Positions 15,401 through 63,896 of a stretch of 63,896 nt of DNA are shown here, one piece after another. The translations under genes and the position numbers were made by a program. Position 1 is the stretch's first letter, and each line of letters begins with the position of its first letter. This DNA comes from a virus (taxonomy: Duplodnaviria; Caudoviricetes): positions 1 through 63,896 of the IMG/VR virus record IMGVR_UViG_3300044516_000384. One strand, written 5' to 3'. The notes under the pieces are model-generated. The model did not search any database. It saw only the letters and a list, made by a program, of their open reading frames with translations, and had not been told where the DNA came from.

Positions 15401-18400
15401 CGCTTCAGGATTTAATGAGTTAAGTCTAATCGTAGCTCGTTGGTCAACAGTATTTGCTTGATAGTAGAAGAACTCTAATCCGAGTGCGTGTAATTCTTCC
15501 AATGCCTTATCGCCAAACGCTAGGACATAATCCTTTGCGTCACGCTTTGCTTTGTTATAAGAGGCTTCATTCTTCCAGAAATCTGCTAGTGAGTCAGGTA
15601 AGTTGCTATCTTTAATAGATTGCCGTATCGCTTCATCACGCGCTGCATATATAGCTCTACCTAAACTAACTTGGGCCTCAACACGTAGTCCAGCAATAGA
15701 ATCAATGTGCCACTGTGTACTCATGTGATAGAAGGCTTGACCAGCGACAGATCGCATCAACTTACTTAGAGCAGTGACCTTAGCCAGAGATAAATCATTT
15801 ACCTCATCTTCTGTTAACCGCAACGCTTTAACAGCAGATCTAAATAATGCAGCATCTGTCTTTGATTGACTTGGCCGACCAAGTAGCAGGTTGATCTGAT
15901 GAGCGACTTGGAATACGCGAGGTCTAGCTGTACGACTATATGATGATGGGATCTTAGCGTTTGCAGATGCAAATGCCTCAGACATTACACCTAATGAATC
16001 AAGATGTTGATGTACTTGGTTAAGAGTTACCTCAAACCCATCACCTGAGAACATACGAGCAATACGACTAATGGCGCCATAATCAACATCGCTGTTTGGT
16101 CGAGTAACAGAATCTAATGCGTTGTACAACGCACCCATAGTGTCAATGATGCCATGCTCTAACGAGAATGATATTAAAGCTTCTTGTATCTGAGCAACTG
16201 GGGCAGTGCCATTAAGTAAGACATCAAGTAAAACATCGTTAATTGTGTCAGGTGTTGCAGCCTTAATTTTTTCCCAAGCTTTTTGAGTGTCACGCCATCT
16301 CGTGTATGCTGCTGCATTTTCTTCATCAGTTAACGTTCTCTTCAATGGACGCAGTTGAGGTGTGCCTTCGCTTGGAGTAAACCCTGCAGCGCGTTCCCCT
16401 AATTTATAATCATCGCGAGCCGAATCCAAGACTACATCATTAGCACTAAGTGTATAAGACATGCCCTCTGGGTTGTCTAATGCTTTGACGGTAACCATTC
16501 CGTCTTTACTGTCAATTACGATAGCTTCTTTTTCAGGGTTAATGTTGTCGCCAATACGAGCAAGCACAACGTCACCAACGCGAGCTTTAGTATCATAAAT
16601 TAAATCACCGTTTGCAACTCGCCCAACAAATCCGGATTCAGCAGTAGTGTCTGCTAAATAATCGGATACTACTTGAGCAATTGCTAATTCTTTAGACTCG
16701 TCAGACATTTCTGATCTGGCTATATCGCCTAATCTATTAATCTGTTCAGCATTCAAAACAACGCGACTAACCGTACCTAGGTGCTGCAAAGGCATATCTA
16801 TATAGTTGACATCGCCACTTACAACATTGGACACTTGCTCAACCATAGACAACTTAGATGCGTAATCACCAGACAGTAGCTCTTGTTCTGTAAGCGGCTT
16901 GTATGTTGTTTGGTCACCTCCACGAGGTATACCCTGCATGATTATGGATCCATCTGGTAATTGATAAATACCAGTAGGGTTGACCATTCCCTCAATAGAG
17001 AGAAGTCTGCCAACAGTTGTCTGCTCTTCTCCAGTAACAGCATTCTTGCCTAAGTTAATGTCAGTTGGAAATGCATCTCTATCACCAGACTTAGGAAATG
17101 ATCTATCAGCAACTTCAGTTTCTGTACCTAAGCCAAGTTGCTCAACAGACTGCTTAACAGTTTGCTTGATATCAGTGTCACCACGTGGATTATCAGCAAC
17201 AAACTCCTTGTAGGACAGCGTCCTGATCACATCTCCATTAGCAGTGCGAGTGCGAACTACTACGCCACCACGGTTAGTAACACCAGTAACTATAGAAATA
17301 CCTAAAGGAGATCTATAAGAAAGAGCATTAGGCTCAACATTCATTTCATCAACAGCAAACTTCGTTAACTGTTCTGTGCGACCAGTGCCACGTAACCGTG
17401 TAACGTCTTTTGCGTCAATGATTTGTACATCTGCAAAGTCAGCTAACTCTGTGCGGACAACATCTGTAAATGTTTTGTTGTAAACAAGGTATTCTTGTTT
17501 GCCACCTTCTTCAGCTGGTAATTTGACAGCATAGAAATCCTTACCGCCAATCTTAGATGCATCAATAGGCTCAACTACTTTCTCCGTAGGAGGAATATCA
17601 GCACCTAACGATATGCGCATCTGTGGCTCAATTTCTTTTGCCAATGCGTTAATCTGATTCTTCTTTCCAACAGCCGTAGTTGGATAAAGTGATTCATTAT
17701 TCTGTAAAGTTAGAAGAGGATTGTCAGGTCCTACGGGTTGATTATCGCCCTTAGTTCGTGCCAACTGTAACAATGTGTCAACTGCTTCTTGCTGTACGTT
17801 TCTGCCAGACATCATTTCTGCAAAAATAGCAGATGGACTATTCCAAGCGGTCCCCGGTGTCTGTCGATCAGCAGCAAATTGTTGACCCGCCATCTTACGC
17901 AGTTGACTCACGATACGTTTAAGGTCACCGACATTTGCGTCCTGACCACCAAAATTACTCTTGAATCGTTCGTTAGCCATTTGGATAAATGTGTCGCCAT
18001 TCTCCACAATGTTCTTTGCTTCAAGCACAGAGTAACTTTTTGCGTTAGAGCCAGCATAAATATCTTTTCCGCCTATTTCAGAACGGAACAATCCCGACAA
18101 CTTACCAGCTGGACGCATTGCACCGAATGCCATGATTAATGAGCGTACATAATCCTCATTCTTCGGTGCTTCAACCTTGTCGTTATACTTAGACGAGATC
18201 GCCTGAGCTACAGGGTGAAGTAGGTTAGTTACACCAAAGGTTAAGTCTGGAACAACTTCGTTAGATAACTGCATATATTCAGCAGCTGTCTTACTACCTA
18301 AGTCTCGCAATGGATTGACACCAGTAGTCTTGATAGACTTATTGGCTTCCTTGACCATCTTATATAACTGACGTGCATCTTTATAAACACGTCCTGTTTG

Positions 18401-19764: not shown

Positions 19765-21660
19765 CTATTCTCTTCCAAGTAATGAGTCTATAACACCCTG
19801 TAATTCCTTGGTGGCGTCTTTATAATACGTTGTCTTGCGTACCTTTTCTGCTGCGTTTTGTGGAATACCGTTTACGCGTTGTTCAAGTCTTTGCATTGAA
19901 GCTAATTTACTAGTTGGCTGGTATTTAAGTGCGTCATTCAACGCTTTTAGATTAGCTCTAGAAATTACGCCAAGAGCAGTACCAACTTGATCTGGTGTTA
20001 CACCACTAGGTAATGCACCACTAATAATTCCAACTGACTGCAATATAGCTTCTTTGGCGTCTGGCGCAGCAGTAGCGAGTGTTCTTCCAGCCGAGTCAAG
20101 TTGCTCTGATCTACTATAAGCTCTAGCTCGTCCAAGATTGATACCACTTATAGAAACAGAGAGAGCTTCTTTATCTGCATCATTTGTAATATCAACAGCT
20201 CGTGCCGTTCTGTCAAGTGCTTTTTGCTCTGCCTCAAAACGCCTCTTAATGTCATCGCGAACGCCTTCCATAAGAGCCTTAGCAGCTTCATTGGAATCCT
20301 TACCTCGTGATTCTGCACGTGACCTACTAGTCTCGGTTGGATTAAAAATATCTGTAGATCTATTATAGATAGATGTTAATGCTGCTACAGCTTTTTCATC
20401 ATTTGCTAAATAATTTTGTAATAGCGATTCATTTTTTGGGCTAAATAATTGTATCTCTGGTTGATCTAAACCAAGCGCGATTTGAGCCTGATAAGGTGTG
20501 ACCTTATTTGTAGCTGCCCATTCTTTAATAAAGTTAAGAACTTTTGGCAATGCAATCTGCGTAGCTTTTACAGGATTAAATGTGACTTCAGCTGGGATAT
20601 ACGCACCAACCGCTACATCTTTTCCATTGCTTGCGCGATAAACGCCACCAGTTGTATTGTAACGACCCGGTTTAAAATCGTATGCACCGGCCTCATACTC
20701 GTTAATGCCTCTATCTTTTAAACCCTTCCTAAACGCATCTTTATCAGCAGCAGTTAACGTAGTATCTTTTTCAATCTTATACTCTTTGCCAGCAAGAATA
20801 TCAGCTACGCTAATTTTATTTACTGGAGGTTCTACAGGTTTCTGCGCTGCAGGTGCATTTGGATCTGGCATACCAGTTGGTTTTGTGGCTGCATTTGTAT
20901 CTGGTGGTGGCGGAGGTGGTTTTTGTTCACCACCCGGTGCTGGCATACTACCCGGTGCTGGCATACTACCCGGTGTTGGCATACTACCCGGTGCTGGCAT
21001 ACTACCCGGTGCTGGCATGTTAGATACATCAGGCACAGCAGTTGATGTATTAAACCCAACATTACTGGGCAATACTTTATTTGTCCCCGGTGCCTGTACT
21101 CCCGGAGCCTTCATGTCTAATAAGTCTGGTGGCGACCATGGTTTACTGTCATCAAATATATCGCCAAGTCCTTGAGCTGTAGCTTGTTCACCGTAAATCC
21201 CTTTTAAGTCCTCAAGCATCTTTCGTTCATCTTCAATCTCACCGCGTATTAAAGCTTCTGTAGTTGGAGTCAGATTTCTGTCTGCTAATTTTGGAAGCAA
21301 TGCTTGAATTTTCGTACGTGATTTATTTGATACATCAAACCATTGTGCTTTTAAAGCAGTTCGTTCTTTAGGTAATTTACTTTTAAGGTCAATGATAGCA
21401 GCTTGTCGTTGACCTGCTCTGATTGGAGCATTAGAGTTCCATTCTGCAAGTTCACGGTTGTATTGATCTACCTGTCTTTTATCAGCGTCAACGCCACGTT
21501 GATAAGTATCGTCAGCCCGCCTGCCTTCCGACATACGCTGTTCAGACTGTAAACGCTCTTGACTAAATTGCTGTTGTTGTTGTTGCCTTTGACCTTTACC
21601 TTGCTGCAAGGTATCAAGGAAAGACAGTAACCCAGTTACACCACCAGAGTTAATTTTCAT
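19765..21660 (-). CDS. Internal virion/ejection protein with Gln-rich N-terminus and PAPGSM repeats
   Basis: Position and composition typical of podovirus ejection proteins. Confidence 0.55.
   Translation of the reverse strand: MKINSGGVTGLLSFLDTLQQGKGQRQQQQQQFSQERLQSEQRMSEGRRADDTYQRGVDADKRQVDQYNRELAEWNSNAPIRAGQRQAAIIDLKSKLPKERTALKAQWFDVSNKSRTKIQALLPKLADRNLTPTTEALIRGEIEDERKMLEDLKGIYGEQATAQGLGDIFDDSKPWSPPDLLDMKAPGVQAPGTNKVLPSNVGFNTSTAVPDVSNMPAPGSMPAPGSMPTPGSMPAPGSMPAPGGEQKPPPPPPDTNAATKPTGMPDPNAPAAQKPVEPPVNKISVADILAGKEYKIEKDTTLTAADKDAFRKGLKDRGINEYEAGAYDFKPGRYNTTGGVYRASNGKDVAVGAYIPAEVTFNPVKATQIALPKVLNFIKEWAATNKVTPYQAQIALGLDQPEIQLFSPKNESLLQNYLANDEKAVAALTSIYNRSTDIFNPTETSRSRAESRGKDSNEAAKALMEGVRDDIKRRFEAEQKALDRTARAVDITNDADKEALSVSISGINLGRARAYSRSEQLDSAGRTLATAAPDAKEAILQSVGIISGALPSGVTPDQVGTALGVISRANLKALNDALKYQPTSKLASMQRLEQRVNGIPQNAAEKVRKTTYYKDATKELQGVIDSLLGRE
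20932..21018. repeat. 18-bp coding tandem repeat, about 4.8 copies (PAPGSM)
   Basis: ACCCGGTGCTGGCATACT units, one with a C>T change. Confidence 0.95.
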
Positions 21661-41289: not shown

Positions 41290-42367
41290 AGTGTTGTACT
41301 ATTTTTCCTATCAAGCTTCCAAGGAGTGATGTCTTAGCACTAGTCACGTTTTGTCTAGTATTAGCAACTGCAGTTTTAACTGGCTGTAATACTTTATCAT
41401 CATTAGCTTTATACTTAGCTTGCAAGTCAGACATAAACTTCTGCTGTGCAGGACTCTCTCCCGGTGTAGAAGAAAGCATTTCAAGGATCCGACCAATGTC
41501 ACCATACTGTGGATCTAATTCGCCAGACCCACCACGACGTGCTTTAGATATTGGATAATTTGATTCAAATTTTGATGCACCGCCCATAAAATCAAATGCC
41601 TCATCGACTTTTTGTTTTGTTGCGCTATGTGCTTTAGTGCCAAACACAAGATCAAAATCTTTTAAAAAGTTAGAGCCAGTACGCGCAGCTTTAGCACCAA
41701 GATCTGTTCGTTGAACTGTTTGATCAATCAATGGTTCAACATGATGTTGAAATGCATGATCCTTATAAGTTTGTATACCTACTGGAACAGTTTGGCTTAA
41801 TGCGCCAGCTACATTTTTTTGCGCAGATTTACTCCATGATGCGGGGCCAACACCCTTACCTTTTGATGCAAGTGCTGCTAACGTATCAATACCTATATCC
41901 GTACCAATATTCAATCCATTCTTAAGTGCAATGGATAGTAGTTGATTATATGTATAGTCCTTTCCAGTTGAACCTTGATAATCATCAGACGGATCATCTG
42001 GAGTTTCATATCCTTCCTGATATCCGTATTCCATTTCTTTTGGATTAAACGCTTGATATGTTTGATGCGCATAATCTAACTGAGTTGGTAAATCATTTAT
42101 GACTCGACCTTTAAGTTGTGGTCTTACATCAGTAACTGCTTTTGCCGCTGTTCGTAATTTACTTGGAGGTTTTGCACGACGTTCCTTGAGTGCTGTTTTA
42201 CCTCCTGCTTTCGCAACCCTTTTATCTATTTGCCGGTTAACAACATTATATGCCGCATCACCAGCACCCTTTACTTGATTTGCAAGCTGCAAGTAACTTA
42301 GTAAATCCTCACCAATATTTAAACCACGCTGTACAGATGGCTTACTTTGCTGTTTTTCTTGTGGCAT
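41279..42367 (-). CDS. Hypothetical protein, probably virion-associated
   Basis: Long ORF; start taken at MPQEKQ after GGAG. Confidence 0.65.
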   Translation of the reverse strand: MPQEKQQSKPSVQRGLNIGEDLLSYLQLANQVKGAGDAAYNVVNRQIDKRVAKAGGKTALKERRAKPPSKLRTAAKAVTDVRPQLKGRVINDLPTQLDYAHQTYQAFNPKEMEYGYQEGYETPDDPSDDYQGSTGKDYTYNQLLSIALKNGLNIGTDIGIDTLAALASKGKGVGPASWSKSAQKNVAGALSQTVPVGIQTYKDHAFQHHVEPLIDQTVQRTDLGAKAARTGSNFLKDFDLVFGTKAHSATKQKVDEAFDFMGGASKFESNYPISKARRGGSGELDPQYGDIGRILEMLSSTPGESPAQQKFMSDLQAKYKANDDKVLQPVKTAVANTRQNVTSAKTSLLGSLIGKIVQHFGN

Positions 42368-45300
42368 TTTTTCCTCCAAATGCGTTACCCAACTTACCTG
42401 CAAATCCCTTTACTACTTGACCAGTCTGCACAACTAAACCTGCAACTCCACGTCCTCTGCGTGTATTCCGTATTAATTCACCTTGTGTTCTCTCTGCGCT
42501 TGCTGGCCTACGCGGTGGCTGTGGTGTAGCCGTAGGTGCTGGCGTAACCTGTACTGGTCTTGCAGGTGGTTGTGGTGCACGTCTTACCTGTGCTGTTGGA
42601 GGAGGAGTGCGTCGTGTTGCTGCAGCTTTACTTGCTGCAGATCCAGATGCAGTTTTCTTTAACTCTGGTATACGCTTAGCACTTTCCTCTGCTCGTTTTT
42701 GTTTTTCAGCTTCTTCCTGAGCGTTAGCCTCCATTGCCTTTTGAGACTGAACAATACGCTGTTTTACGCCATACTCAATAGTTACACCAAGTGCATCTGC
42801 CAATCGAACGAACTGAGCTTTGTTTTTAGCTGCAGATAATTTTGCTCGTATTTCTTTTGCTTCTTGTGGTGTACCAGCACGAAAAGTAACATTAGCACCT
42901 TTAAGTAAAGGTGTGTCAGCACTATATGCTTGCTTCTTAACTTCTACGGGTTCATTTTTCTTAGCCTCAGCTGCAGCTTCTCGTTCAGCTGCAAGCCTTG
43001 CTTCTGCTACTGCAGCAGCAGAAGCTACCTTATCAACTTTAATACCAGCCGCTTTTGCTCTTTGTAATTTCCTTCGTTGATCGGGACTCGTTTTATTACG
43101 AGCCTCAATCTCAACCATCTTTTTACTTTCTTCGGCGTCATCCATTTCAGCCTGTCTTTCAGGTGATATGGAAGATGCATATTTAATTGGAGGCATTTTA
43201 GAAGCAATAGACGGCTCAATTTTTGGCCATATACGTTCAAATGCTGCAGAAAATCTAGGATCGTTTAAACCTGTAAGTGTTTTATTTGCTGCATCATATC
43301 TAATGCCTAATGCATTCCATTTATCTTGTGGTCCACCCAAAGATCTTGCCATATCAGCATTTAATCTAGACGCTGCATTTAATACGTTAGCTGGAACTCC
43401 GGGTGCCCATTCTTTTACAAGTCGATAATATTCTGCAGTATCATTTTTTGCTTGAGATATTACCCATGCAGCTGTAATGACCTTTTGTAATTTATAGTAA
43501 CTTAATTTTTGATCAATAATCCATTGAGCTTTAGGATCTAACTCACCAACAACAGGTGTCTTTTTAATACCCTGAACAGCTTCTCTTGCTTCATCAGCTA
43601 ACTGTGCTTCCGATATAGGAGCTTTAGAAGGAATCAAGTAATCAGGAACTTCAACGGTTAATGTCTCTGGATTAATTTTAATTCCACGTTTAATCATGCC
43701 GTTTAATTCATCACGTAAAACCTCACGGAACTGAATGCCCGGATTAGAAGACGCACCAACCTCTTTAAGTTTTTTAAGGATCAATTCAACTTTTGGCTTA
43801 GACACTGGGTCAAGTTGATTTATAAAAGCAGTTGTTAATGCTGTATTAACTGGATTAGTTAGCCCTTCAATCGTCTTTGCTGTTGCTTCACCTGCTCGTT
43901 GACGAGCAATCTGTAAGTCCTCACCACGTCCTTTACCCGGAGATATTAATATTTGTCCATCCGAAACAACACGTGTTGGTACTAAGTCAGAGTTCTGCTC
44001 CCAATACATCCTAGCTGGACCAGACAACGTATCAGCATATTGCGAACGTATTGTTCCAATACCACCAGCGTTATACTCTCCACTCTTAATATCATTTGCT
44101 AGTCTACTTGCAGATTGTAAAAACTCAGCACGTATATATTCTGGAATTTTACTTGCTTCAGACTGAATGACATCTTGAACTTTTTTAGCAGCTTGCTCAG
44201 GTGTGTCGTCAGGACTAGCATTACGGTCAATAGTCTGACTAATAGTAAGTAGTGACCGCGTTGCCGTAGATACATCTTCGCTAACTTGCGTACCTATACT
44301 GTTGCGGTTAATCTTCTCTACAACTCGATCGTCTATGCTTCTGCTTTTCCCACGAGTACTTGTTGCATTGTAAGAACTTGATGCACGTAAGTCTCCAGTA
44401 ATGCCACCTTGTCTATCAATGTCAGTAACAAGTGCAAGAAGTCTATTACCTTGATCTCTGTTCATGGAACCAAGAAAACCCACAAACTGTGTGTCAGATA
44501 ATCCAGCTGCAGTCTCTTTTGTAAGTCCGCCACCAATCAAGTTTGCAACATACTTACGCCTATCTTCAAAGTTTGGAGCACCTTCTTGTAATCCACTTCG
44601 GATAAGAGAATGCATTTGTCGCGCTTGCTTAGCAATGTAATCACCAGACATGCCATATCGCGAACCAGATAATCCACCAGCAATTGCAGAACTTGTACGT
44701 GATGTAAAACCATACCGCTCTCGCTCATTTCGCGGAACAACAACTGTCTGTGTTAATGGAGACCCGTTTTTATCTAATGCTGGTACGTATGTCTTTTTGC
44801 CAGAGTCGTCAACCTTTTCCCGATAAACAGGTATGACCGCTTCACCATTGGCACTTATATTTACACGAACAGACGGAGCGTCTTCAATATACTCACCATA
44901 AGCATTAACTGGATTAATACTTACTCCAGTTCGCGCTTCCGATAATGTAGGTGTAGCACGAGAAACTTGAGCATCTTCTAAATTAACACCGCTAAAGTAA
45001 TTGGCTGCATTGATACCTCGCTTGTTAATCCAAGCATCAACAATATCAAAGCCTTGAGCAAGTCTTTGTTTTCCAGTTACTTCTTTTGGTCTAGTGAAAT
45101 CTGCGTCATTGCTTGTTCCTAATCTTTCAAAGAACGGAGATGTGCTGCGTCCTGCATTAGATGAATTACTTCTGTCTAGCATTTCTGACGAATCGTCTAA
45201 CTTGTCCGTTAAAAATGTTTTAAATTCATTTAGGTTTTGATATTCGGTATCACCTTTACCTAATCCTGTAAGTCGTTCATCAATTTTAGAAATCATTCCA

Positions 45301-47276
45301 CGCATAGCATTCATGGTTTGATCGTGTAACTTATCACCATAAGCAACGCCATCTTCGTCTTGTGTTACACGTAATAACTGATCTAAGTCTTCCATAGCTA
45401 CTGCTGGATCAAAGTTTTTGATAGAAATATCTTTGTTGACATCTCGTTTGCCAAACAGTGTCGTTGTAGTATCAATGCCAAAGTTTCTACCTACGCCAAG
45501 AAGGATACTATCTGGATCTGCGGTATACGTCATGTCTCTCTTTTTGTCTTTAGTGAGAGCAGTTTGCATATTACTGATATTGGATTCCACAGCAGTTCTA
45601 CGCGATGTCGTATCACCAATACCTCTCGCAGCAACTTCTTCAGCTGTATCAATTCCAAATGCGTTTGGTGTAGAACCATATACTTCAATGTCAACACCGG
45701 GAAAGAAAATACGCTTCTGCACCTTGTTCATGTATGGTGCTAACTCAGTGGCTGCTTGATCGTCTTGACCATTCTTTAAAAGAATCATTGCTCTGTCAGC
45801 AGCAGCAGCAAACTCAGTTTCTTTACCACGGAAATCAAAGGAGGATATATTTTGTAATTCCTTATTGATTCCAAACATGTCTGTAATTTGCTTTAGTGCA
45901 GAATCATCTGCAGTTGCCATCCCAGCTAGTTGTTTGGCTAGTTCTTTGTCGACACCTTTACTGCCCTGAAAAGCAGCAGTAATGCGTCTAGTAATATAAG
46001 TATTGAACGGATTGTCTACAGCGACATTAACACGATTAGAAACATCAGATTCAGATTTAAATCCGCCAAGTAACTGACGTAACAATGCAGCTTGTTTCTG
46101 CACACCAGTTCTTGTACCACGTCCAGAATCAGGCCCTTCGCCAGTGTAGACGTCTTTTGTGGCCAATGTGTCAAGTTTTACCAACTCGTTACTTAACCAC
46201 TTACCAGCGATTTGTCTTGCTGCAGTACCAAATGTTTTATTAAGTTCAACTTTATTTAGTTCTGTTTTCTCAGCTGATGAAGCAAAGAACTTTTTATAAA
46301 TAGGGTTATTTCCAAGAGCATCAAAAATAACTCCTCCACGATCAGGCTTAGCTGTAGGTAAGCTTGCTCCAGAAAGTTGCATGTGAGCAGAGCTAAAAAC
46401 TGCAGGGTCATCTGTATCGCCATTCAAATATCCAGACATACCAATGATTGCCTGAATAGCAGAATCTTTCTGTCCTTGCTTTGAGCGTGGATTACTAACA
46501 ATAGATCTAGCAACTCTTACAGCATCACTAAAGATATCTTGTTTATTAACTTGCCCTGCAACACCACTAAGTGGATCCATGCCTTCTGCTAGTACACCAC
46601 CAGCAGTTCTAGGTTGTGGTCCCGCTAAGGCGTCTTTAGCCAGCTTAGATGATTGTTCACCTCCCGGTAAATCCGGTAAATCTTTAAGTACAGAACCTGC
46701 GGATCTTCCAGTTTGCAACAACATCTTGAAGTTGCTTGCTAGTTGCTTTGATCTTTTACTATCTAGTAATTCAGGTACATCAATAATGTCTTGTGGTTTA
46801 TATCTAAGTTCTGGATAAGTAACACTTCTTGCTTCACGGTCCATTACTGGACTTGATGTAATAGGTGTGTTTAATTCAGCTGTACCCGTATTAGGTAATG
46901 CCTCACGTCCTCTTTGCTCAATATCTGCAGCTAACTGAGCATTGCCTAAATTAACTCGTTCGCTTGCTTTTGCGCCGGGAGCACTTAAGATTGTTTCTAA
47001 TTTTTCTCGCGCAACATCTTCTGTTGATTTTGGCGGTGGAGCTGAAACACGCTTTTTAACTGTTACGCCAGATGGTGGTGCAGTAGGTGTAGGAGTAGTT
47101 ACTGGTGGTTGTGGCATTACACCAGCCGGAGGTTGAGGGCCTCCAGCTGGTGCTGGCATGGGTGCGCCAGTGGGGGCAGGTTGTCCTCCCATAGAACCCG
47201 GTACAGGAGGAGTTACTGCTGCCTTCTTTGTCGGGTCTTCATTATCTGGAATTAACAATGATCTAAGGGAGGCCAT
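42342..47276 (-). CDS. 1644-aa unknown protein with Pro-rich termini
   Basis: Long ORF, no recognisable catalytic motif. Confidence 0.8.
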   Translation of the reverse strand: MASLRSLLIPDNEDPTKKAAVTPPVPGSMGGQPAPTGAPMPAPAGGPQPPAGVMPQPPVTTPTPTAPPSGVTVKKRVSAPPPKSTEDVAREKLETILSAPGAKASERVNLGNAQLAADIEQRGREALPNTGTAELNTPITSSPVMDREARSVTYPELRYKPQDIIDVPELLDSKRSKQLASNFKMLLQTGRSAGSVLKDLPDLPGGEQSSKLAKDALAGPQPRTAGGVLAEGMDPLSGVAGQVNKQDIFSDAVRVARSIVSNPRSKQGQKDSAIQAIIGMSGYLNGDTDDPAVFSSAHMQLSGASLPTAKPDRGGVIFDALGNNPIYKKFFASSAEKTELNKVELNKTFGTAARQIAGKWLSNELVKLDTLATKDVYTGEGPDSGRGTRTGVQKQAALLRQLLGGFKSESDVSNRVNVAVDNPFNTYITRRITAAFQGSKGVDKELAKQLAGMATADDSALKQITDMFGINKELQNISSFDFRGKETEFAAAADRAMILLKNGQDDQAATELAPYMNKVQKRIFFPGVDIEVYGSTPNAFGIDTAEEVAARGIGDTTSRRTAVESNISNMQTALTKDKKRDMTYTADPDSILLGVGRNFGIDTTTTLFGKRDVNKDISIKNFDPAVAMEDLDQLLRVTQDEDGVAYGDKLHDQTMNAMRGMISKIDERLTGLGKGDTEYQNLNEFKTFLTDKLDDSSEMLDRSNSSNAGRSTSPFFERLGTSNDADFTRPKEVTGKQRLAQGFDIVDAWINKRGINAANYFSGVNLEDAQVSRATPTLSEARTGVSINPVNAYGEYIEDAPSVRVNISANGEAVIPVYREKVDDSGKKTYVPALDKNGSPLTQTVVVPRNERERYGFTSRTSSAIAGGLSGSRYGMSGDYIAKQARQMHSLIRSGLQEGAPNFEDRRKYVANLIGGGLTKETAAGLSDTQFVGFLGSMNRDQGNRLLALVTDIDRQGGITGDLRASSSYNATSTRGKSRSIDDRVVEKINRNSIGTQVSEDVSTATRSLLTISQTIDRNASPDDTPEQAAKKVQDVIQSEASKIPEYIRAEFLQSASRLANDIKSGEYNAGGIGTIRSQYADTLSGPARMYWEQNSDLVPTRVVSDGQILISPGKGRGEDLQIARQRAGEATAKTIEGLTNPVNTALTTAFINQLDPVSKPKVELILKKLKEVGASSNPGIQFREVLRDELNGMIKRGIKINPETLTVEVPDYLIPSKAPISEAQLADEAREAVQGIKKTPVVGELDPKAQWIIDQKLSYYKLQKVITAAWVISQAKNDTAEYYRLVKEWAPGVPANVLNAASRLNADMARSLGGPQDKWNALGIRYDAANKTLTGLNDPRFSAAFERIWPKIEPSIASKMPPIKYASSISPERQAEMDDAEESKKMVEIEARNKTSPDQRRKLQRAKAAGIKVDKVASAAAVAEARLAAEREAAAEAKKNEPVEVKKQAYSADTPLLKGANVTFRAGTPQEAKEIRAKLSAAKNKAQFVRLADALGVTIEYGVKQRIVQSQKAMEANAQEEAEKQKRAEESAKRIPELKKTASGSAASKAAATRRTPPPTAQVRRAPQPPARPVQVTPAPTATPQPPRRPASAERTQGELIRNTRRGRGVAGLVVQTGQVVKGFAGKLGNAFGGKNATRKTAK

Positions 47277-53329: not shown

Positions 53330-53491
53330 AACCCAACTGTTGGGTTATTTATGGTGTAGGCTCGAACCGCTGGTTCGGGTATGCGGGCGGGCGATAAGTA
53401 GCATGATGTAGCGAATCATGTAACCTATCGCCCGTTCGCATTCTACAAAACAAAACAAAACAACAAAACAACTAAAGGATGGTATTAGACA
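53330..53491 (+). ncRNA. Structured leader: palindrome, three-way junction and CAAAA-repeat linker
   Basis: Pairings listed in findings. Confidence 0.45.
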
Positions 53492-53922: not shown

Positions 53923-53956
53923 GGCTACCCGGTAGAACATACCGGGTAGTTTTTTT
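53923..53956 (+). terminator. Intrinsic terminator
   Basis: GGCTACCCGGTA-GAACA-TACCGGGTAGTT followed by a T-run. Confidence 0.85.
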
Positions 53957-54022
53957 ATAATCACTTACTTTCTCCCTAGTGCGTTCAGTGCTAGGGAGTA
54001 TTTGTTTGTATGGAGGTTAGTA

Positions 54023-54649
54023 ATGGGATTGAACACACGTTCGTTTGAGAATGCGTTGCACTTACAGTACGAGTTGACTGAGCATCGTAACGCTATTGTC
54101 GCTCACGGTCAGCGGGTAATGCTCGCTAACGCTATCTTGTACTCACCGGCTGCGAAAGCAATCATGAGTGACACGCAAGAATTGTTCGATGCATGTTTTG
54201 AGGGTGTCAGTGATACCCGTTGTGAACCCATCTACTGGTGGATGATTTCCCTTGGTGCTCAGATCATGGATCGTGTTGACCATGCATTCCAAGTACTCCA
54301 CACGAACGAGTTCGATGGCAACATCATGAACACATACGAGTATCTCCAAGAGAGCGTAATGTCCAAGCATACTGATGACTACAAGTATGGGTTCGAGTTC
54401 AACAACGGACACTGGTGCTTTTATACGCAAGCTGATTGCACCGTCATGGGCAAGCCTTTCCAAGGGCGTGTCGAGATTGGTTTCATGACTATGCCACGTA
54501 GGGGTTGTGATGTTCTCACCCCGCTTGAGATTGAGATGTATGAGCGCGTTGCAAAGGTGTTCATCACTCAACACTGGAAAGCACGGCTAGCCAAGATTGA
54601 ACGCGAGGGTCTCGACTTCTCGTACGATCACGACAACGACAACGACTAA
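54023..54649 (+). CDS. Early hypothetical protein
   Basis: GGAGG RBS before MGLNTR. Confidence 0.75.
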   Translation: MGLNTRSFENALHLQYELTEHRNAIVAHGQRVMLANAILYSPAAKAIMSDTQELFDACFEGVSDTRCEPIYWWMISLGAQIMDRVDHAFQVLHTNEFDGNIMNTYEYLQESVMSKHTDDYKYGFEFNNGHWCFYTQADCTVMGKPFQGRVEIGFMTMPRRGCDVLTPLEIEMYERVAKVFITQHWKARLAKIEREGLDFSYDHDNDND

Positions 54650-54706
54650 CAATGGTGAGGGTGATGGCAACGTCACCCTCCCGTGGTTCGATTCCACGGT
54701 TAGTTA
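54644..54706 (+). ncRNA. tRNA-like element without an anticodon
   Basis: 7-bp acceptor stem, AATGGT linker, 10-bp GCAA-capped stem, canonical 5-bp T stem with TTCGATT loop. Confidence 0.65.
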
Positions 54707-54766
54707 TCTCCCTAGTGGGGAACAATAGGTGAGCGACCTTTATACGCATACACAAGGATAACAACA

Positions 54767-54967
54767 ATGACATCACTACTCAAGCTCAAGAACCTCACCG
54801 CGTTTGAAGCCACCCTTATCAAGGCGTGGTTCTGCGCATGTATCTTCATCATTGGCGCATGCTTTACAATGCTCGGACAGAATATGCGTATCATGGAACT
54901 TGAATCCCATATCGCGTCAATGCAAGACGAAGACGCTAACGCGGACGCTATCGCGCAAGTCAACTAA
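54767..54967 (+). CDS. Early small membrane protein
   Basis: One hydrophobic helix; AAGGA RBS. Confidence 0.6.
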   Translation: MTSLLKLKNLTAFEATLIKAWFCACIFIIGACFTMLGQNMRIMELESHIASMQDEDANADAIAQVN

Positions 54968-54977
54968 TCAATACACA

Positions 54978-55011
54978 GGCCATCACCTCCGGGTGGTGGC
55001 TTTTCTTTTTT
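54978..55011 (+). terminator. Intrinsic terminator
   Basis: GGCCATCACC-TCCG-GGTGGTGGCT followed by a T-rich tract. Confidence 0.8.
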
Positions 55012-55035
55012 GCGTGTCTGGAGGCACACCAACAA

Positions 55036-56202
55036 ATGCGTAATTCTTTTGAAATCAAAATAGATGTAAACACTGCACGTGATGCAGAACATCAATTACA
55101 TAAAATGTACGGCGATCTACGCCACCCTATGGTTATTGCTGCGACCGCTCGCAAGCGTGACCTCATCCGGCAAATGGATGACGCAATCATGCGTGAAATG
55201 ATGGACGGTAAACGCAAAGACGTAGAAGCTCTCTACGGTATGAGGAAAAAGAAATGACAAGAGAACAAGCACTCGACGCGATCAAGGTGTACGCCGCATG
55301 GCAATACGACACCGACATCAACGCATGGTCAGTGACATCACGCGACCAATACGTTGACCGATACATGCAGTCAGTAGAACAACTGTGTGACACATACGTT
55401 ATTGGCATCGGAGAAGTAGCAATGAATGCTATGCTCAATCCCGTCGGTGACCTCGTTAAACAACTAAGGACATTGCAAGCACTATGATCATCCCATCAGA
55501 ATTCCGCATCCTTGATGCAGAACCAAAGGTCTACACAATAGACCAACGTACATCGACCACCACCGTACCAGTAGCATACGCCCTCTTCACTGAGGGCGGA
55601 CACTACGATGAAGCGAACGATGAATACGAGGAGGGCACATATGTAGTACATATGGACTACCACAACATTGCACACGTGATCATGTGCAAAGACTTCTTTG
55701 TCGCACAAGGCGTACTCAAAGAATACCAAGAAGCAACACAAAACACTGCATACATATGCGGATGCCCATTGGAATCAGTGGATGATGGACATCACGTTCG
55801 ATACTACGAATCAGCATCAGTAATCGTAGACATGACAGTAGCCGACTACCTAGTAAGGATAAAGAAATGAAAGTAACAATCGACACAAAGAACTATACGG
55901 AAGCACAGCTCCGTACACTCGTACGCCAAGGCATCATCGACAAGAGTGTTCTCCGCAAGGAAACACTCGACCCCATTGCGATGGAAGCATTGCAGTTCAT
56001 GCACGTCCACTACACCAACGATCAGATCTCTGCAATGGCCGGTGTCAAATCCGCAACATGGGTCTGGAACATGGCACAAGGCAACATCGTTAAGATGTAC
56101 AAACTCGTCATCGACAACATGAACATCACACCAAGTGAACTGCTGATTATCCAGTCAGCTGCACACGTGATGACACGCATAGCACAACGTAGCATCAAGT
56201 AA
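55036..56202 (+). CDS. Four coupled early hypothetical genes (55036-55257, 55254-55487, 55484-55870, 55867-56202)
   Basis: Chain of ATGA overlaps. Confidence 0.7.
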
Positions 56203-56204
56203 GG

Positions 56205-56319
56205 GGGAGGGTCTAAAAATTAGTACCCTCCCAAAAATAGTAACCGGGAGGGTCTAAATTTAGTAACCCTCATTACATTGAATGATAATTAATTTAACTA
56301 TATATTGTCCATGGACAAT
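56205..56319. other. Candidate replication origin: iteron-like repeats, AT-rich tract and palindrome
   Basis: GGGAGGGTCTAAA(A/T)...TAGTA(A)CCCTC twice plus a half copy; AT-rich 56272-56306; ATTGTCCATGGACAAT. Confidence 0.5.
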
Positions 56320-56335
56320 GGGAGCTAGGTAATAC

Positions 56336-56644
56336 ATGGAGCTGAGAGTAGGACAGAACGTACGCAATGTACGACGCCCAGATGTCATAGGAATAATCAC
56401 ATCATTGGAAGCGCCCAACAATCAATGGGCAAGACCACAAGACCGTAGAGTCATGGTCAGATACCCACGAGTAACCATCATGTCCAATGGTAAATGGAAA
56501 GGTGGCATCCTTGATGAACTGCCAATAGATCTTCTCCCTACAGGAGAACCTATTCATCCTGCCTTTGACTCATATAAACGTAGCGGAGATCAAGGCACCG
56601 GCGAAGTTAGAATGCTCGCACACAAAAGGAACAGACGAAAATGA
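56336..56644 (+). CDS. Early hypothetical protein, SH3/KOW-like N-terminus
   Basis: LRVGQNVR......GIIT. Confidence 0.6.
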   Translation: MELRVGQNVRNVRRPDVIGIITSLEAPNNQWARPQDRRVMVRYPRVTIMSNGKWKGGILDELPIDLLPTGEPIHPAFDSYKRSGDQGTGEVRMLAHKRNRRK

Positions 56645-56760
56645 CAATCATCATATGCATATTCATAACAATGTTATCCATCATATTTTTAATAGGGTGG
56701 TTTTTTAATTCAATTAATGAAGCACAAAACCGTATTGACAAGGAGACAGAAAATGAATAA
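56641..56760 (+). CDS. 39-aa membrane peptide, not in the ORF track
   Basis: MTIIICIFITMLSIIFLIGWFF...; ATGA overlap. Confidence 0.55.
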   Translation: MTIIICIFITMLSIIFLIGWFFNSINEAQNRIDKETENE

Positions 56761-57148
56761 ACAAATCATCAGTGCCCATGAGTTGGCACGTAACGTAATT
56801 AAGGCCTACGAGATAGCTGACGCCCTCATCACGGGCGTTGAGTTCCATAACTCAGAGAATGGTAGGTCAAAGCATCGATCGACTATCAATGGCGTACTTG
56901 AAGTCAGATTACATATGCATTATGAACGCATGACTTCTGCTGTGTACACAATCTACATTCAGATACATGACAACAAGTGGACACTGACAGCGCATGGTTA
57001 TCTTAATGATGTCAATGTCGAGTATTCAAGTACTGATACTGACATGACATACAACTACCTTGATCTTAAGGAATGGATCAATGACTTTGTTGCCACCGTC
57101 TATCAACTCAAAGTTGCAGAAGTACACGGCATCGTAGTCATCCCATAG
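56753..57148 (+). CDS. Early hypothetical protein
   Basis: AAGGAG RBS before MNKQ. Confidence 0.7.
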   Translation: MNKQIISAHELARNVIKAYEIADALITGVEFHNSENGRSKHRSTINGVLEVRLHMHYERMTSAVYTIYIQIHDNKWTLTAHGYLNDVNVEYSSTDTDMTYNYLDLKEWINDFVATVYQLKVAEVHGIVVIP

Positions 57149-57154
57149 TTAGAC

Positions 57155-57183
57155 GTGAGGGATGCGTCTCACCAACAACGCAT
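57155..57183 (+). promoter_or_regulatory. Intergenic pseudoknot repeat, copy 1
   Basis: GTGAGG-GATGCG-TCTCAC-CAACAA-CGCAT. Confidence 0.7.
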
Positions 57184-57197
57184 GAAAGAAAAACACA

Positions 57198-58036
57198 ATG
57201 ACTGACCTAACACATTACAGGACTATCATCCTGCGATTCGCTTACTTACATATCCACCCCGGTGGTGGTCTTGCCGCGATGATTATGCTTAAGCCTGGCT
57301 TTGAAGACAAACTCGATCACATAGCACAGACTAATCTGTGTGAGTTGCTCAGGTTTGCAAATGCACACGTTCCATACGACACACGCAATGCACAAGGATT
57401 CAATGACTGGCTTGGCGAGGAGCCAAACATGTTTGAGAAAGAGTCATTCAATAAGTGGATGTCGGCAATCACGCCAATGCCACGACCTACACCTGCAGGA
57501 TGGGAGGAGGTAGATACTACCAGTGTCTAAATATACATACCACAATCAACAGTATGACTTTCAGGGCCGAGCAATCGGCCCTGTTGGTGTCTTTCATAAT
57601 GCCACTGTCGCAAAAACAGTGGCTCGTTATCTTGTATACATGCAACCAGAAATCATGCACATCAGGATTTCAAGATGCCTTGAGCATACATATGAATTTG
57701 AGCCGTTCATGATTGTTTACATGAACATTGTAACTGACAAAGCTAAAGTAAGTAGAAGGAAAGTATTTTAAAATGAGATTTGTACCTGTAGTGTTGTACG
57801 GTTCACTTGTACTTGAAAAGTTATTAAAAGAGAAATTAATAACAAAAGATCATTACGATCATATGTGGGAAAGATTTAAAGCTCTTGGTAACTCACTCAA
57901 TTATGTATTAATTGATCTTGATGAGGTAACTCTCAATCTTGAGGAAGTTGAATCAATAATGATAATGAATTACATAAGAGCTCAAGAAAACATAACGGAC
58001 CACGAGTTTTCGTTCAACATCAAAATTGCTATCTAA
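57198..58036 (+). CDS. Three early hypothetical genes (57198-57530, 57523-57771, 57773-58036)
   Basis: Tightly packed, same strand. Confidence 0.65.
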
Positions 58037-58043
58037 TGTTTGT

Positions 58044-58072
58044 GTGAGGGGTGCGCCTCACTGACAACGCAT
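58044..58072 (+). promoter_or_regulatory. Intergenic pseudoknot repeat, copy 2
   Basis: GTGAGG-GGTGCG-CCTCAC-TGACAA-CGCAT. Confidence 0.7.
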
Positions 58073-58088
58073 AGAAAAGAAACACATC

Positions 58089-58580
58089 ATGTCTATCGAA
58101 ATATACACAAAGTATTTCCGCGAGAATCTTCTCTCTGTTCCTGCAAAAGTAGCAGACGGTACCTTGTACTCATATGGTGGCTACCATACATGTTCACATA
58201 CAGATACCGTTGAACTCAACGGGCATCACATATCAATGGAGTACAAGCTGCGTATGGACGTAGCTAATGGTGAAGAGAAGACTCTTCATCCTATTCCTCT
58301 TGTTCAAATTGAAGTGACTATGACATTGCGTCCTGACAAGGATAGCCGTGAAACATCGTCATTTATGAATAAGATCATCAAGGTTCAGCTTAACAGCGAG
58401 ACTCTTGAAGAGCAGATTGATGAGGCGATTCAGACACTGGAGCGCATCATTATAGATGTGAAGTTGCCGACTATTGCCTTTGACTTCTGGAAGTATGTTG
58501 CTACGGCAATGCCAGACTTTGAGAAGCAAGTCAGCAAGACGATTGTAACTAACTACCAACGTCTGTCCTACAAGGACTAG
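58089..58580 (+). CDS. Early hypothetical protein flanked by repeat copies 2 and 3
   Basis: 163-aa ORF. Confidence 0.7.
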   Translation: MSIEIYTKYFRENLLSVPAKVADGTLYSYGGYHTCSHTDTVELNGHHISMEYKLRMDVANGEEKTLHPIPLVQIEVTMTLRPDKDSRETSSFMNKIIKVQLNSETLEEQIDEAIQTLERIIIDVKLPTIAFDFWKYVATAMPDFEKQVSKTIVTNYQRLSYKD

Positions 58581-58586
58581 TTAGAT

Positions 58587-58615
58587 GTGAGGGGTGCGTC
58601 TCACTAACAACGCAC
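58587..58615 (+). promoter_or_regulatory. Intergenic pseudoknot repeat, copy 3
   Basis: GTGAGG-GGTGCG-TCTCAC-TAACAA-CGCAC. Confidence 0.7.
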
Positions 58616-58641
58616 AACTACACAATATAGAGGAAAACATA

Positions 58642-60073
58642 ATGTATCGACAATGGTATGAACGCAAAATCAAACTTGATGATGGATATCAAGTGTCTAT
58701 TATCTGCAAACAACTGGTTAGTTATGGAGAAGATGAAAAGTTGTTTGAATGTGCTTTGATTACACCAGATGATTACGTCGATGATGATTCTGTAACAGGT
58801 TACTTAGACTTTCATCAGGTTGCAGAGTACATCAATAAAGCTAAGGAAAAACACAATGAAATACACAGAACCAACGTTTCGTAAACTCGTAGATGAGATG
58901 CTGACAAAGACTATCGGATTTGACAGTACTGATCTACCTGACTTTAGTCTTTGGGAATACTTTGACCTTGACTACGATTACACACCACAAGAAATAGCTG
59001 AAGCCGCACAAATAGCAAGCATTGATCTGCTTGTTGAAGCTGATGGGCCAAGCGATTTATTGATTGAGATAGTACAAGACTTGATAAAACAAGAAGCAAA
59101 CACACTAAGAGGAATTTAATTATGAAAAAACTAAAACTCGTTTCTGTTCCAATGTTTAATGCACCCGGCGTATTGCGTTGGGCACGTCATTTCTATCGCA
59201 TGACTAACTGCTCAAAGAAAGATAAGAAGTATTTTTTAGGTGTCATGCGTTCATGGGTACAGAGAGATGCTAAATATTGTCTTGAGTGTGCAGACGAATT
59301 CATTGAATGGAATGTTAATGAAGAGTTTGTAACCATCACAGTTGATAGAAGGAAAAAGAAATGAGTTTTGAATTTAGACCTATCAAATACACATTCTGGA
59401 ATACGTTCGGGGATAACACCCCGAACGATTTAGTTTGCATGTATATCGAACCGCATTACGGTGAGCCATGCCTTATCAAGATTAGGCGCAGACTTGCTAC
59501 AGAAATCGGATGTAAGAGACTACGTCAAGGTGTAGAGTGGCACGTCAATGATACTGACTGCTCCATGTGGAGTCAACGCCATGCAGTCATAGGTTTTGCT
59601 GAAGTGTTAGCACCAATAACAGTTGAGTCAAAGAAACAAGCTCTGGCGGTGTGTGAGTTTATGGAGTTAAAAACATGAGTGACAACATAATGATACAAGC
59701 ATGGGATGAGATTATTGCTGATTCACAAGAAGCTGAAGAGTGCATTGTCTCTTTGTACAGCGTTGAGCCGTATTATGGTGGCCCAGAGGAAGGAGGTTGG
59801 TGGGGTAACTTGTACATACTTAGAAAGTATGTACGATGCAGCAATCGAGATGCAGCAGAGAGTCTACAAACAAAACTGCAGGAAAGGTGTTCACAATTAA
59901 ACTATGAAGCAAAAATAGCAGACGGGGAACACTGTTTACGTCAGATCGAACGTGCTGATGCACGAGGCGAAGACATTGATGACTATGGTTATGATGGACC
60001 AAGTTCATACAACGTAATCATCGAGAAGTTTCCCGGTGAGAATCAAGTAACAGAAAGATCACATTACGAATAA
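58642..60073 (+). CDS. Five early hypothetical genes (58642-58884, 58856-59119, 59122-59364, 59361-59678, 59675-60073)
   Basis: Packed ORFs; GY..SI...SYG....LFE.A and YGGPEEGGWW motifs recur in other phage early proteins. Confidence 0.65.
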
Positions 60074-63509: not shown

Positions 63510-63896
63510 TGCCATCAAGAAGACGGAGTACTTATCATCCTGTCTGTTACTATGTAGACTCTCCGCTTGGTAGGGTCTACATAAGTAATCAGTTCACAGC
63601 AAAGATAATTTATCAACTGTGGTGTCAGTACTGCTGTGAGTATTCAATAGATGGCGTCATAGTTCTTCACGCTATGATGTCACCCAATGGATGGTCAACA
63701 TGGAGTAGGAAGCACATTATTGATTTGCTTAACGGTGGATGGAAATCAAGACTGCTTTGTAAATCAATAGTAAACGACTCAATAAGAAAGGAAATAATGT
63801 TCAACGCGAACGTAAGTGTTACGACAGATGAGTATGAATGGTTTGCGTCTCATAAATGGAATGACATGCAACCTAATGTATGTCACAGTCTTACAC
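63509..63896 (+). CDS. Hypothetical protein running off the end; continues as 37-312 (about 187 aa in total)
   Basis: Open frame from ATG 63509 with TAATG overlap. Confidence 0.65.
   Translation, partial: MPSRRRSTYHPVCYYVDSPLGRVYISNQFTAKIIYQLWCQYCCEYSIDGVIVLHAMMSPNGWSTWSRKHIIDLLNGGWKSRLLCKSIVNDSIRKEIMFNANVSVTTDEYEWFASHKWNDMQPNVCHSLT

Follow-up and report, generated by a model that had tools for sequence, protein, structure and literature searches.

A compact RNA pseudoknot between stop codons and ribosome-binding sites recurs in unrelated phage lineages

Introduction

Small pseudoknots that control translation in bacteria and their phages form, to our knowledge, a group of only a handful, among them those of T4 gene 32, rpsO, tisB and pseudoknot 1 (pk1) of transfer-messenger RNA (tmRNA). 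The present study deals with a 29-nucleotide (nt) intergenic element that occurs in three copies in a genome of an uncultured lineage of the Caudoviricetes, IMG/VR record IMGVR_UViG_3300044516_000384, the full length of which (63,896 nt) was analysed and is referred to as the window throughout. The element takes the form of an H-type pseudoknot, in the following simply termed the knot, and each copy is placed between the stop codon of one gene and the ribosome-binding site (RBS) of the next.

In Escherichia coli, the 5′ pseudoknot of the tisB mRNA standby site is required for binding of the 30S subunit and of ribosomal protein S1, and many pseudoknots are known to bind S1 well (PMC7708055). 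In tmRNA, pk1 is joined to the open reading frame (ORF) by an A-rich single-stranded segment, and tagging is kept when single-stranded RNA takes its place or when only a hairpin of it is left (PMC4236655).

The element of the window corresponds to no named family, as an initial annotation of the sequence had already stated. Rfam 15 at gathering thresholds reports only three transfer RNAs (tRNAs) in the whole window, and at E ≤ 10 two unrelated weak matches are obtained for positions 54500-58700, neither of which is located at the element. Searches of the main texts of papers retrieved none on it; the candidate obtained by sequence string is a tuf coding sequence. The element thus appears to be a new and widespread control element. 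Very probably it is a compact H-type RNA pseudoknot which is folded by the sense (mRNA) strand and embedded in a fixed order of stop codon, knot and RBS.

Results

Three copies of one pseudoknot

Re-reading of the letters places the three 29-nt copies at 57155, 58044 and 58587 with the stems assigned to them in the initial annotation (Table 1). Going from copy 1 to copy 3, stem 1 has G-U, G-C and G-U as its top pair and stem 2 has A-U, G-U and G-C as its outer pair; the differences preserve pairing, again as annotated. The fold consists of stem 1 with 5-6 base pairs (bp), loop 1 with 1-2 nt, stem 2 with 5-6 bp and an A-rich loop 3 with 5-6 nt, a loop 2 being absent.

The three copies are grouped as one family by a repeat search of the window. 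A covariance model, built from 27 distinct homologues and run with filters off on both window strands, yields three matches with 51-57 bits (E ≤ 1e-15), followed by a next best of 11.4 bits (E 0.07). The generic H-type pseudoknot scanner lists six candidates on the plus strand, namely the three copies and three others, and one on the minus strand; for 20 simulated sequences the mean is 1.6 per strand.

Conservation and covariation of the fold

IMG/VR was scanned twice, each time with another part of the element left free. With stem 1 and ACAA fixed and stem 2 free, 106 matches in 71 loci are found. Of these, 74 (one of them cut by the locus end) carry RTGCG...CGCAY with five out of five stem 2 pairs; they reside in relatives of the window phage with two to three per contig at the same spacing. 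The remaining 32 have 0-3 stem 2 pairs as well as unrelated flanks and serve as an internal control. All five complete relatives possess 2-3 copies on one strand and within about 1.5 kb. The outer stem 2 pair in the 76 whole copies, the window included, is G-C in 44, G-U in 18, A-U in 14 and A-C in none (Fisher p = 7e-7, not corrected for phylogeny).

In the second scan stem 2 and loop 3 were fixed and five of the six stem 1 pairs freed, resulting in 101 matches including the window's three. Six stem 1 pairs are formed in 84 and five in 10 of them, and the 7 matches with three pairs or fewer are due to chance or doubtful. Among the 94 paired matches 9 strand combinations are observed, with seven different 5′ strands (GTGAGG, CTGAGG, GGGAGG, AGGAGG, GCGTGG, GGCAGG and CGCAGG), each of which is accompanied by a complementary 3′ strand. 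A third scan, directed at metagenome contigs, employed a stricter pattern with the three bottom pairs of stem 1 unconstrained. Of its 119 matches, 118 keep the bottom three pairs complementary, by means of 10 triplets that differ in sequence, and the outer stem 2 pair is G-C in 98, A-U in 13, G-U in 8 and again A-C in none.

An alignment of 27 distinct cores shows 98.7% of cells paired, with both-sided changes at four of the six stem 1 pairs and one of the five stem 2 pairs. The covariation score exceeds that of all 500 shuffles, and pairing is lost when the partners are slid against each other. Four matches from GTDB with five stem 1 pairs in unrelated context (L139, L166, L182 and L193), which are probably due to chance, are left out of this alignment.

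The top pair of stem 1 is mostly G-U, for which the opposite strand would give a C-A mismatch. Since in addition G-U is tolerated in stem 2 and A-C is not, it is the RNA of the sense strand that folds.

Stem 2 and loops 1 and 3 are conserved in sequence across lineages. Within stem 1 the top is fixed and the bottom varies, and within loop 3 the last four bases are fixed and the first two vary, a distribution that would fit minor-groove triples. Most homologues were retrieved with patterns fixing part of the element, so that sequence conservation is overstated; the more than 200 matches come from viral and metagenome collections that overlap and are not deduplicated against each other, and with many copies being related by descent the counts do not represent independent events.

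Placement between stop and start codon

The layout was analysed for 151 distinct contexts from the window, IMG/VR, metagenomes and three phage-like contigs of metagenome-assembled genomes, both the upstream and the downstream ORF being counted from 40 codons on. The upstream stop codon is located 5-8 nt before the knot in 136 of the 151 contexts (less than 5 nt in 3, more than 8 nt in 10, none found in 2), the spacer between them being AU-rich. On the other side, a start codon follows within 35 nt in 138 contexts, mostly 13-26 nt past the knot and in 89 of them at 13-20 nt. The exceptions to this downstream rule belong mainly to a second phage family, described below, in which a tRNA-like structure of about 100 nt intervenes. 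In 128 of 151 contexts an A comes first after the knot, and purines account for 81% of the next 8 nt. According to the geometry of the ribosomal mRNA channel, a knot 5-8 nt past the A-site codon is positioned at the channel entrance and would thus not be melted by the terminating ribosome.

The copies of the window conform to this layout with spacers of 6, 7 and 6 nt after the stop codon, in agreement with the 6-7 nt annotated initially. The genes of this block mostly abut or overlap; gaps are few, and three of them are filled by the copies. The Shine-Dalgarno sequence of the next cistron is weak after copies 1 and 2. A promoter scan found 30 sites compared with 29.2 expected, hence no excess, and no terminator-like site coincides with the copies, nor is any of the copies read in the window followed by a T-run. 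Within the family of the window phage the knot precedes at least nine unrelated families of small genes.

Distribution over phage lineages

Carriers of the element comprise at least five phage lineages with almost no common proteins, and near-identical cores are present in phages that are otherwise unrelated. In tblastn searches, the complete set of window ORFs has no match in the loci of three other carrier lineages and a single weak match (E = 9e-9, in G006 only) in two whole genomes of other lineages. No phage protein common to all carrier lineages was found in these searches. In GTDB, where at least 120 loci match, 94 of the 121 matches listed have three stem 1 pairs or fewer, as expected by chance, and the convincing ones among those listed are confined to small phage-like contigs (L152, L111 and L094) sharing sequence with phage loci.

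In one of the lineages (L076) the knot precedes a gene that weakly resembles single-stranded DNA-binding proteins (SSBs; phrog_378, E = 0.003). Another lineage is GC-rich and carries the CGCAGG type of stem 1; on one of its metagenome contigs (L322, 1592 nt) three knots are present within 1.6 kb. In loci of the CGCAGG type an additional GC-rich hairpin separates some knots from the RBS, and after others AGGAG or AAGGAG follows at once.

A second family with exchanged helices

The second family (L075, L077 and L079) consists of phages of 45-57 kb with a Sak4-like ATPase gene, an SSB-like gene, an intergenic RNA and a primase gene, the knot following the SSB-like gene (phrog_378, E = 7e-8). With the ATPase as bait 80 loci were collected, and the intergenic region after the SSB-like gene is readable in 75 of them. 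A mismatch-free H-type knot of 9-12 bp is found in 74 of these 75 regions, in 43 distinct sequences. Knots of at least 10 bp are present in 51 of 56 unique regions as opposed to 10 and 12 of 56 after shuffling.

These knots employ 21 different stem 1 and 24 different stem 2 helices and occur in two sequence forms. Form 1 is the element of the window, with GCGCG/CGCGC as a further replacement of GTGCG/CGCAC. Form 2 is assembled from other helices, e.g. AACC C TGAGCA T GGTT TAAAAC TGCTCA. The presence of two sequence forms at one site indicates that selection acts on the topology and not just on one sequence. The H-type fold proposed in the initial annotation is backed by stem 1 covariation across lineages, by a stem 2 that admits G-U yet never A-C, and by different stem 2 helices at syntenic positions.

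The knot of the second family is part of an unannotated RNA of about 120 nt between the SSB-like and the primase gene (L212-L290; e.g. L253:3709-3830 and L212:3709-3845). Its parts are arranged in the order AATGGGCA box, pseudoknot, acceptor-like stem (GCCNC/GNGGC, covarying) and CTGG box, followed by a pyrimidine-loop hairpin (TTCTCCTTTC, anti-Shine-Dalgarno-like), a T-arm (GGTTCGATTCC) and GGGGCAC. The knot ends 3 nt before the tRNA-like structure and about 100 nt upstream of the RBS. RNAalifold supports the acceptor-like and the T-arm stem, with compensatory changes at 10 of 11 predicted pairs. The tRNA-like RNA is called neither by ARAGORN (L075, L077, L079, L084, L088 and L089) nor by Rfam, which reports nothing at the knot or the tRNA-like region of second-family loci. 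The longest complement between the pyrimidine loop and the RBS of the next long ORF has a mean length of 7.0 nt compared with 5.2 nt after shuffling, extends up to 11 nt and co-varies.

One phage of the second family contains, beside ordinary tRNA genes, an 81-nt match to the tmRNA model of Rfam at L253:4166-4246 (61 bits, E = 8e-22). Only the tRNA-like ends of the model are covered, and the segment represents a mini tRNA-like domain without tag region.

Features of the window locus

The coordinates of the three copies, their parts and their immediate surroundings are compiled in Table 1.

Table 1. The three pseudoknot copies of the window with their structural parts, flanking sequences and gene X (S1, S2: stems 1 and 2; L1, L3: loops 1 and 3; aa: amino acids).
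Feature	Positions	Strand	Description
Upstream of copy 1	57146-57154	+	TAG stop (57146-57148) of ORF 56717-57148, then 6-nt spacer
Copy 1	57155-57183	+	GTGAGG G ATGCG TCTCAC CAACAA CGCAT; covariance model (51.3 bits) and pseudoknot scanner
Parts of copy 1	S1 57155-57160/57167-57172; L1 57161; S2 57162-57166/57179-57183; L3 57173-57178		
Downstream of copy 1	57184-57200	+	Purine/A-rich ribosome-binding region; ATG 57198 of 110-aa ORF, 14 nt off
Upstream of copy 2	58034-58043	+	TAA stop (58034-58036) of ORF 57773-58036, then 7-nt spacer
Copy 2	58044-58072	+	GTGAGG G GTGCG CCTCAC TGACAA CGCAT; covariance model (52.6 bits) and pseudoknot scanner
Parts of copy 2	S1 58044-58049/58056-58061; L1 58050; S2 58051-58055/58068-58072; L3 58062-58067		
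Downstream of copy 2	58073-58091	+	A-rich ribosome-binding region; ATG 58089 of gene X, 16 nt off
Gene X	58089-58580	+	163 aa; flanked by copies 2 and 3
Upstream of copy 3	58578-58586	+	TAG stop (58578-58580) of gene X, then 6-nt spacer
Copy 3	58587-58615	+	GTGAGG G GTGCG TCTCAC TAACAA CGCAC; covariance model (57.2 bits) and pseudoknot scanner
Parts of copy 3	S1 58587-58592/58599-58604; L1 58593; S2 58594-58598/58611-58615; L3 58605-58610		
Downstream of copy 3	58616-58644	+	Leader with AGAGGA (Shine-Dalgarno-like); ATG 58642 of 80-aa ORF, 26 nt off

For copy 3 together with its flanks (58581-58644, plus strand) a nested alternative fold of -15 kcal/mol (z = -3.6) is predicted, in which the 5′ strand of stem 1 pairs with a downstream CUACAC and stem 2 is kept. 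The 3′ flank involved recurs in many relatives, which together with the alternative fold makes a conformational switch possible.

The weaker fourth copy annotated initially at 54727-54749 could not be upheld. Its sequence is present, but stem 2 contains an A-A mismatch and stem 1 only four pairs. Neither the covariance model, up to E = 10, nor the scanner recovers it; the only relative with a match to its region is the closest one (L065), and the candidate is absent from all five further relatives' records, four of which are complete. The surrounding intergenic region (54650-54766) harbors a hairpin (GAGGGTGA/TCACCCTC) and, at 54681-54699, a T-arm-like hairpin CCGTGGTTCGATTCCACGG, to which one other relative (L296) has a 22-nt match; ARAGORN calls no tRNA in 54650-54766.

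Gene X is restricted to the lineage, with 11 representative clusters in a library of 1.84 billion proteins and 29 close homologues of 63-96% identity in a word search. In relatives' loci it follows a knot in 34 instances, and in each of the five complete relatives two of the 2-3 copies are about 540 nt apart, as around gene X. The AlphaFold2 model (mean predicted local distance difference test score, pLDDT, of 90) comprises a helix, four long strands and two helices. No convincing fold relative emerged from Foldseek (best E = 0.048) or VIA-align (best Z = 6.3), both values being at noise level. An assignment as ribosome-hibernation (S30AE) or RusA-like protein was considered and rejected, the Pfam match lying below cut-off (E = 0.016), the PHROG match being weak (E = 0.0036) and the structure matches amounting to noise. 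Gene X is unrelated to the knot-adjacent genes of the loci L091, L076 and L079.

Genome and lineage

The window represents a complete phage genome of about 63.76 kb. Positions 1-136 recur at 63761-63896 with 98% identity, a terminal direct repeat of 136 nt which indicates that the genome is either circularly assembled or terminally redundant. The structural genes are encoded on the minus strand (P22-type portal, large terminase and major head protein), which also carries the three tRNAs. A plus-strand block begins at about 53.5 kb, runs through the end and resumes at 1-5.7 kb; it consists of small ORFs and a lambdoid-like replication set with O-like initiator, DnaB, Gam-like and resolvase-like proteins. 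The nearest relative of the portal protein is that of Microbacterium phage Shocker (23% identity), and blastn of 56700-58900 against 50,697 phage records gives no match.

Several further features of the genome were noted. A giant ORF on the minus strand (6464-19756, 4430 aa) has no Pfam, PHROG or PDB sequence match. A second large ORF (42342-47276, minus strand, 1644 aa) is likewise without Pfam or PHROG match; its four weak PDB sequence matches, the best with E = 0.0005 to designed repeat proteins, are uninformative on function. Five tandem 18-nt repeats (GGTGCTGGCATACTACCC-like) are located at 20915-21036 within the minus-strand ORF 19765-21660 (631 aa). The first plus-strand gene is preceded by a long CA-rich leader (ACAAAACAAAAC...) and a GC-rich stem at 53440-53491 (plus strand), and two terminator-like hairpins are situated at 53923-53998.

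Discussion

A possible role at the ribosome

The element is self-contained, portable, strand-specific and flush with the RBS, and its carriers have no phage protein in common; any partner would consequently be supplied by the host, if there is one at all. Given the precedent of a 5′ pseudoknot acting on 30S and S1, and given the likeness to tmRNA pk1, we tentatively favor the combination of a pseudoknot module with a role as standby site or insulator at the next cistron, as a whole a plausible rather than a probable statement. In such a scheme the knot would need no phage-specific protein. Being located just past the leading edge of a ribosome terminating upstream, it would remain folded and could then present a structured docking or insulating element to 30S and S1 in the manner of a standby site, the outcome being efficient de novo initiation on the next cistron. 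Both the partner, 30S or S1, and the direction of the effect are inferred. The arrangement of the second family, in which about 100 nt lie between the knot and a maskable RBS downstream, fits the standby scheme. Of the functions listed in the initial annotation, a translational role gains from the fixed order of stop codon, knot and RBS, whereas ligand control loses from the lack of loop 2 and from the at least nine unrelated downstream gene families.

Several points weigh against a standby or insulator role. Binding of 30S and S1 is purely hypothetical, and a stable knot flush with the Shine-Dalgarno region could equally impede initiation. The tight tie to the upstream stop codon is just as compatible with a stabilizer of 3′ ends. 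In the second family the knot is followed by a tRNA-like structure and not by the RBS, hence a role specific to the RBS needs the standby extension, and the tRNA-like loop complements the RBS only modestly better than shuffled sequences do. In addition, the patterns used for homologues fixed part of the sequence, and many copies are related phylogenetically.

A more far-reaching version is doubtful enough to be rated as quite unlikely. It regards the element as a protein-independent ribosome-handling device of unrelated phage lineages that, in imitation of tmRNA pk1 or a standby site, would dock on 30S, either via S1 or by stacking on the Shine-Dalgarno helix, thereby passing ribosomes from the terminating cistron to the next start. 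In the second family the device would be made up of the knot and a tRNA-like RNA, the primase RBS being masked by the loop of the latter. If true, it would be a bacterial counterpart of the termination-reinitiation elements and of the elements resembling internal ribosome entry sites in eukaryotic viruses.

Alternative explanations

Sequence conservation in stem 2 and in loops 1 and 3, as for a recognition site, would also be in line with a translational operator of the T4 gene 32 type, at which the knot nucleates cooperative binding of an SSB or another RNA-binding protein, of phage or host origin, over an unstructured RBS and a small regulon of early genes is shut off. In T4 a pseudoknot of about 28 nt is likewise followed by an unstructured RBS segment, so that size and order of parts are alike (PMC535899), and SSB-like genes adjoin the knot in the second family and in the L076 lineage. 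However, a search with phrog_378 gives no SSB-family match in the window, gene X with its two flanking copies has no OB-like or other recognized fold, and a protein common to all carrier lineages is missing. The unstructured part measures 13-26 nt and lacks UUAAA repeats, compared with more than 40 nt in T4 (PMC535899), and the second-family form with its wholly different stem 2 at the same site argues against sequence-specific recognition, which leaves the operator unlikely. A low probability is also assigned to the knot as a decay barrier or processing landmark, shielding the upstream 3′ end or the downstream 5′ end against exonucleases or scanning RNase E and thus giving segments of the mRNA different stability. 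Eleven stacked GC-rich pairs are a plausible block, the spacer before the knot is AU-rich, and the knot is as near to the upstream stop codon as a terminating ribosome permits, at 5-8 nt in 136 of the 151 contexts. In the second family, a putative cut by RNase P at the tRNA-like structure 3 nt further on would leave the knot at the new 3′ end. For this purpose, though, a simple hairpin would suffice, yet the pseudoknot topology is kept in two unrelated sequence forms, and a 3′ stabilizer would not account for the downstream RBS being linked just as tightly. Moreover, we know of no pseudoknot in bacteria or phages that acts as an exonuclease barrier.

Readings in which the DNA is the functional molecule conflict with the pattern of substitutions. 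A joint of 29-37 bp promoting the exchange of small gene cassettes, with the RNA fold being secondary, had been considered in the initial annotation and is only weakly supported: the three knot zones cover 5.6% of the region and contain 45 of 212 internal blastn match ends, but other junctions are break points nearly as often (116 of 212 ends in 13 zones, i.e. about 8.9 compared with 15 per junction, a ratio of about 1.7). The at least nine unrelated gene families behind the knot in the window's family, the near-identical cores in otherwise unrelated phages and the precedent of the PeSL elements (PMC2839356, PMC4122927) speak for such a joint; compensatory changes, the asymmetry between G-U and A-C and the strict co-orientation with the genes reveal selection on RNA, and the copies carry no promoter or terminator signal, so it is considered very unlikely. 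The chances of a DNA promoter are close to negligible, be it for a phage RNA polymerase or, as a hairpin promoter of the N4 type, for a virion-borne polymerase residing in the 4430-aa protein. It is true that a highly conserved intergenic sequence is found three times upstream of genes, that part of it resembles promoter cores of the T3/T7 type, and that the giant ORF is present and without family match. Nevertheless, stem 1 varies in sequence with pairing kept, G-U is tolerated and A-C is not, and unrelated helices occupy the same site in the second family; helices that covary and are replaced wholesale are incompatible with a promoter in duplex DNA. The lambdoid-like replication module suggests use of the host polymerase, and PF00940 was not found in the genome, a weak argument as the control gave no match either. 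A riboswitch for a small ligand is highly improbable as well. The preQ1-I and guanidine-III classes are alike in size, H-type topology and an A-rich loop 3 beside the RBS, and the conserved sequences of loops and stem 2 would suit a binding site, but for a pocket there is no loop 2 and a loop 1 of only 1-2 nt. Furthermore, no Rfam family matches at the element even at E ≤ 10, the downstream genes are many unrelated small ORFs, and the GTDB matches with paired stem 1, among those listed, are located only on small contigs sharing sequence with phage loci.

Significance

A fold of 29 nt with strict layout and clear covariation, without match in Rfam, is present in at least five lineages. Should the knot alone suffice to recruit or insulate ribosomes, phage biology and the design of synthetic operons would gain a very compact expression part of general use, along with a tractable model for the effect of structured RNA beside a Shine-Dalgarno sequence on initiation. 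The tRNA-like RNA of the second family constitutes a further unannotated class of RNA.

Comparison with known systems

The PeSL cassettes of T4-type phages resemble the locus of the window in being repeated, conserved intergenic modules that flank variable small early genes (PMC2839356, PMC4122927); in contrast to the element, with its RNA-type covariation and no promoter or terminator signal, they are composites of a sigma-70 early promoter and a terminator stem-loop which act as DNA and as signals for transcription.

Recoding pseudoknots of luteoviruses and retroviruses are likewise compact, of H-type and endowed with an A-rich loop 3, and they are placed 5-8 nt from the A-site codon, this spacer length being the rule for recoding signals. 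Unlike these, the element is associated neither with a slippery heptamer nor with an extended product. Recoding was considered for the window and rejected: a heptamer of the type X XXY YYZ is absent, and the readthrough and -1 frames close after 3-58 codons without the alternative frames ever joining the next ORF, whose own frame is closed at once.

The operator of gene 32 in T4 and RB69 is, like the knot, an H-type pseudoknot of about 28-29 nt in a phage leader or intercistronic region and is followed by an unstructured RBS segment (PMC535899). It differs in that the element is present in several copies per genome before at least nine unrelated genes, that the window has no recognized gp32-like or other SSB, and that the element is distributed over several unrelated lineages with almost no common proteins.

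The tisB mRNA shares with the knot the position of a pseudoknot upstream of the RBS, and the second-family knot in particular recalls this organization, its RBS, about 100 nt further downstream, being capable of sequestration. Contrary to tisB, the knot of the window abuts an apparently open RBS, and the likeness described is one of arrangement.

A tmRNA is not detected in the window by ARAGORN, nor does RF00023 match the genome, control genomes giving matches. Loops 1 and 2 of tmRNA pk1 are longer than in the knot, and the order of parts differs. Apart from this, pk1 and the knot are both H-type: the 5′ strand of stem 1 is purine-rich and of the GAGG type, stem 2 is short and GC-rich, and loop 3 is rich in A. 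In a phage-borne tmRNA (L081), read by eye, pk1 is positioned 11-16 nt upstream of the codon at which translation begins, which is similar to the knot and its start codon, and, as in tmRNA, the knot of the second family adjoins a tRNA-like domain.

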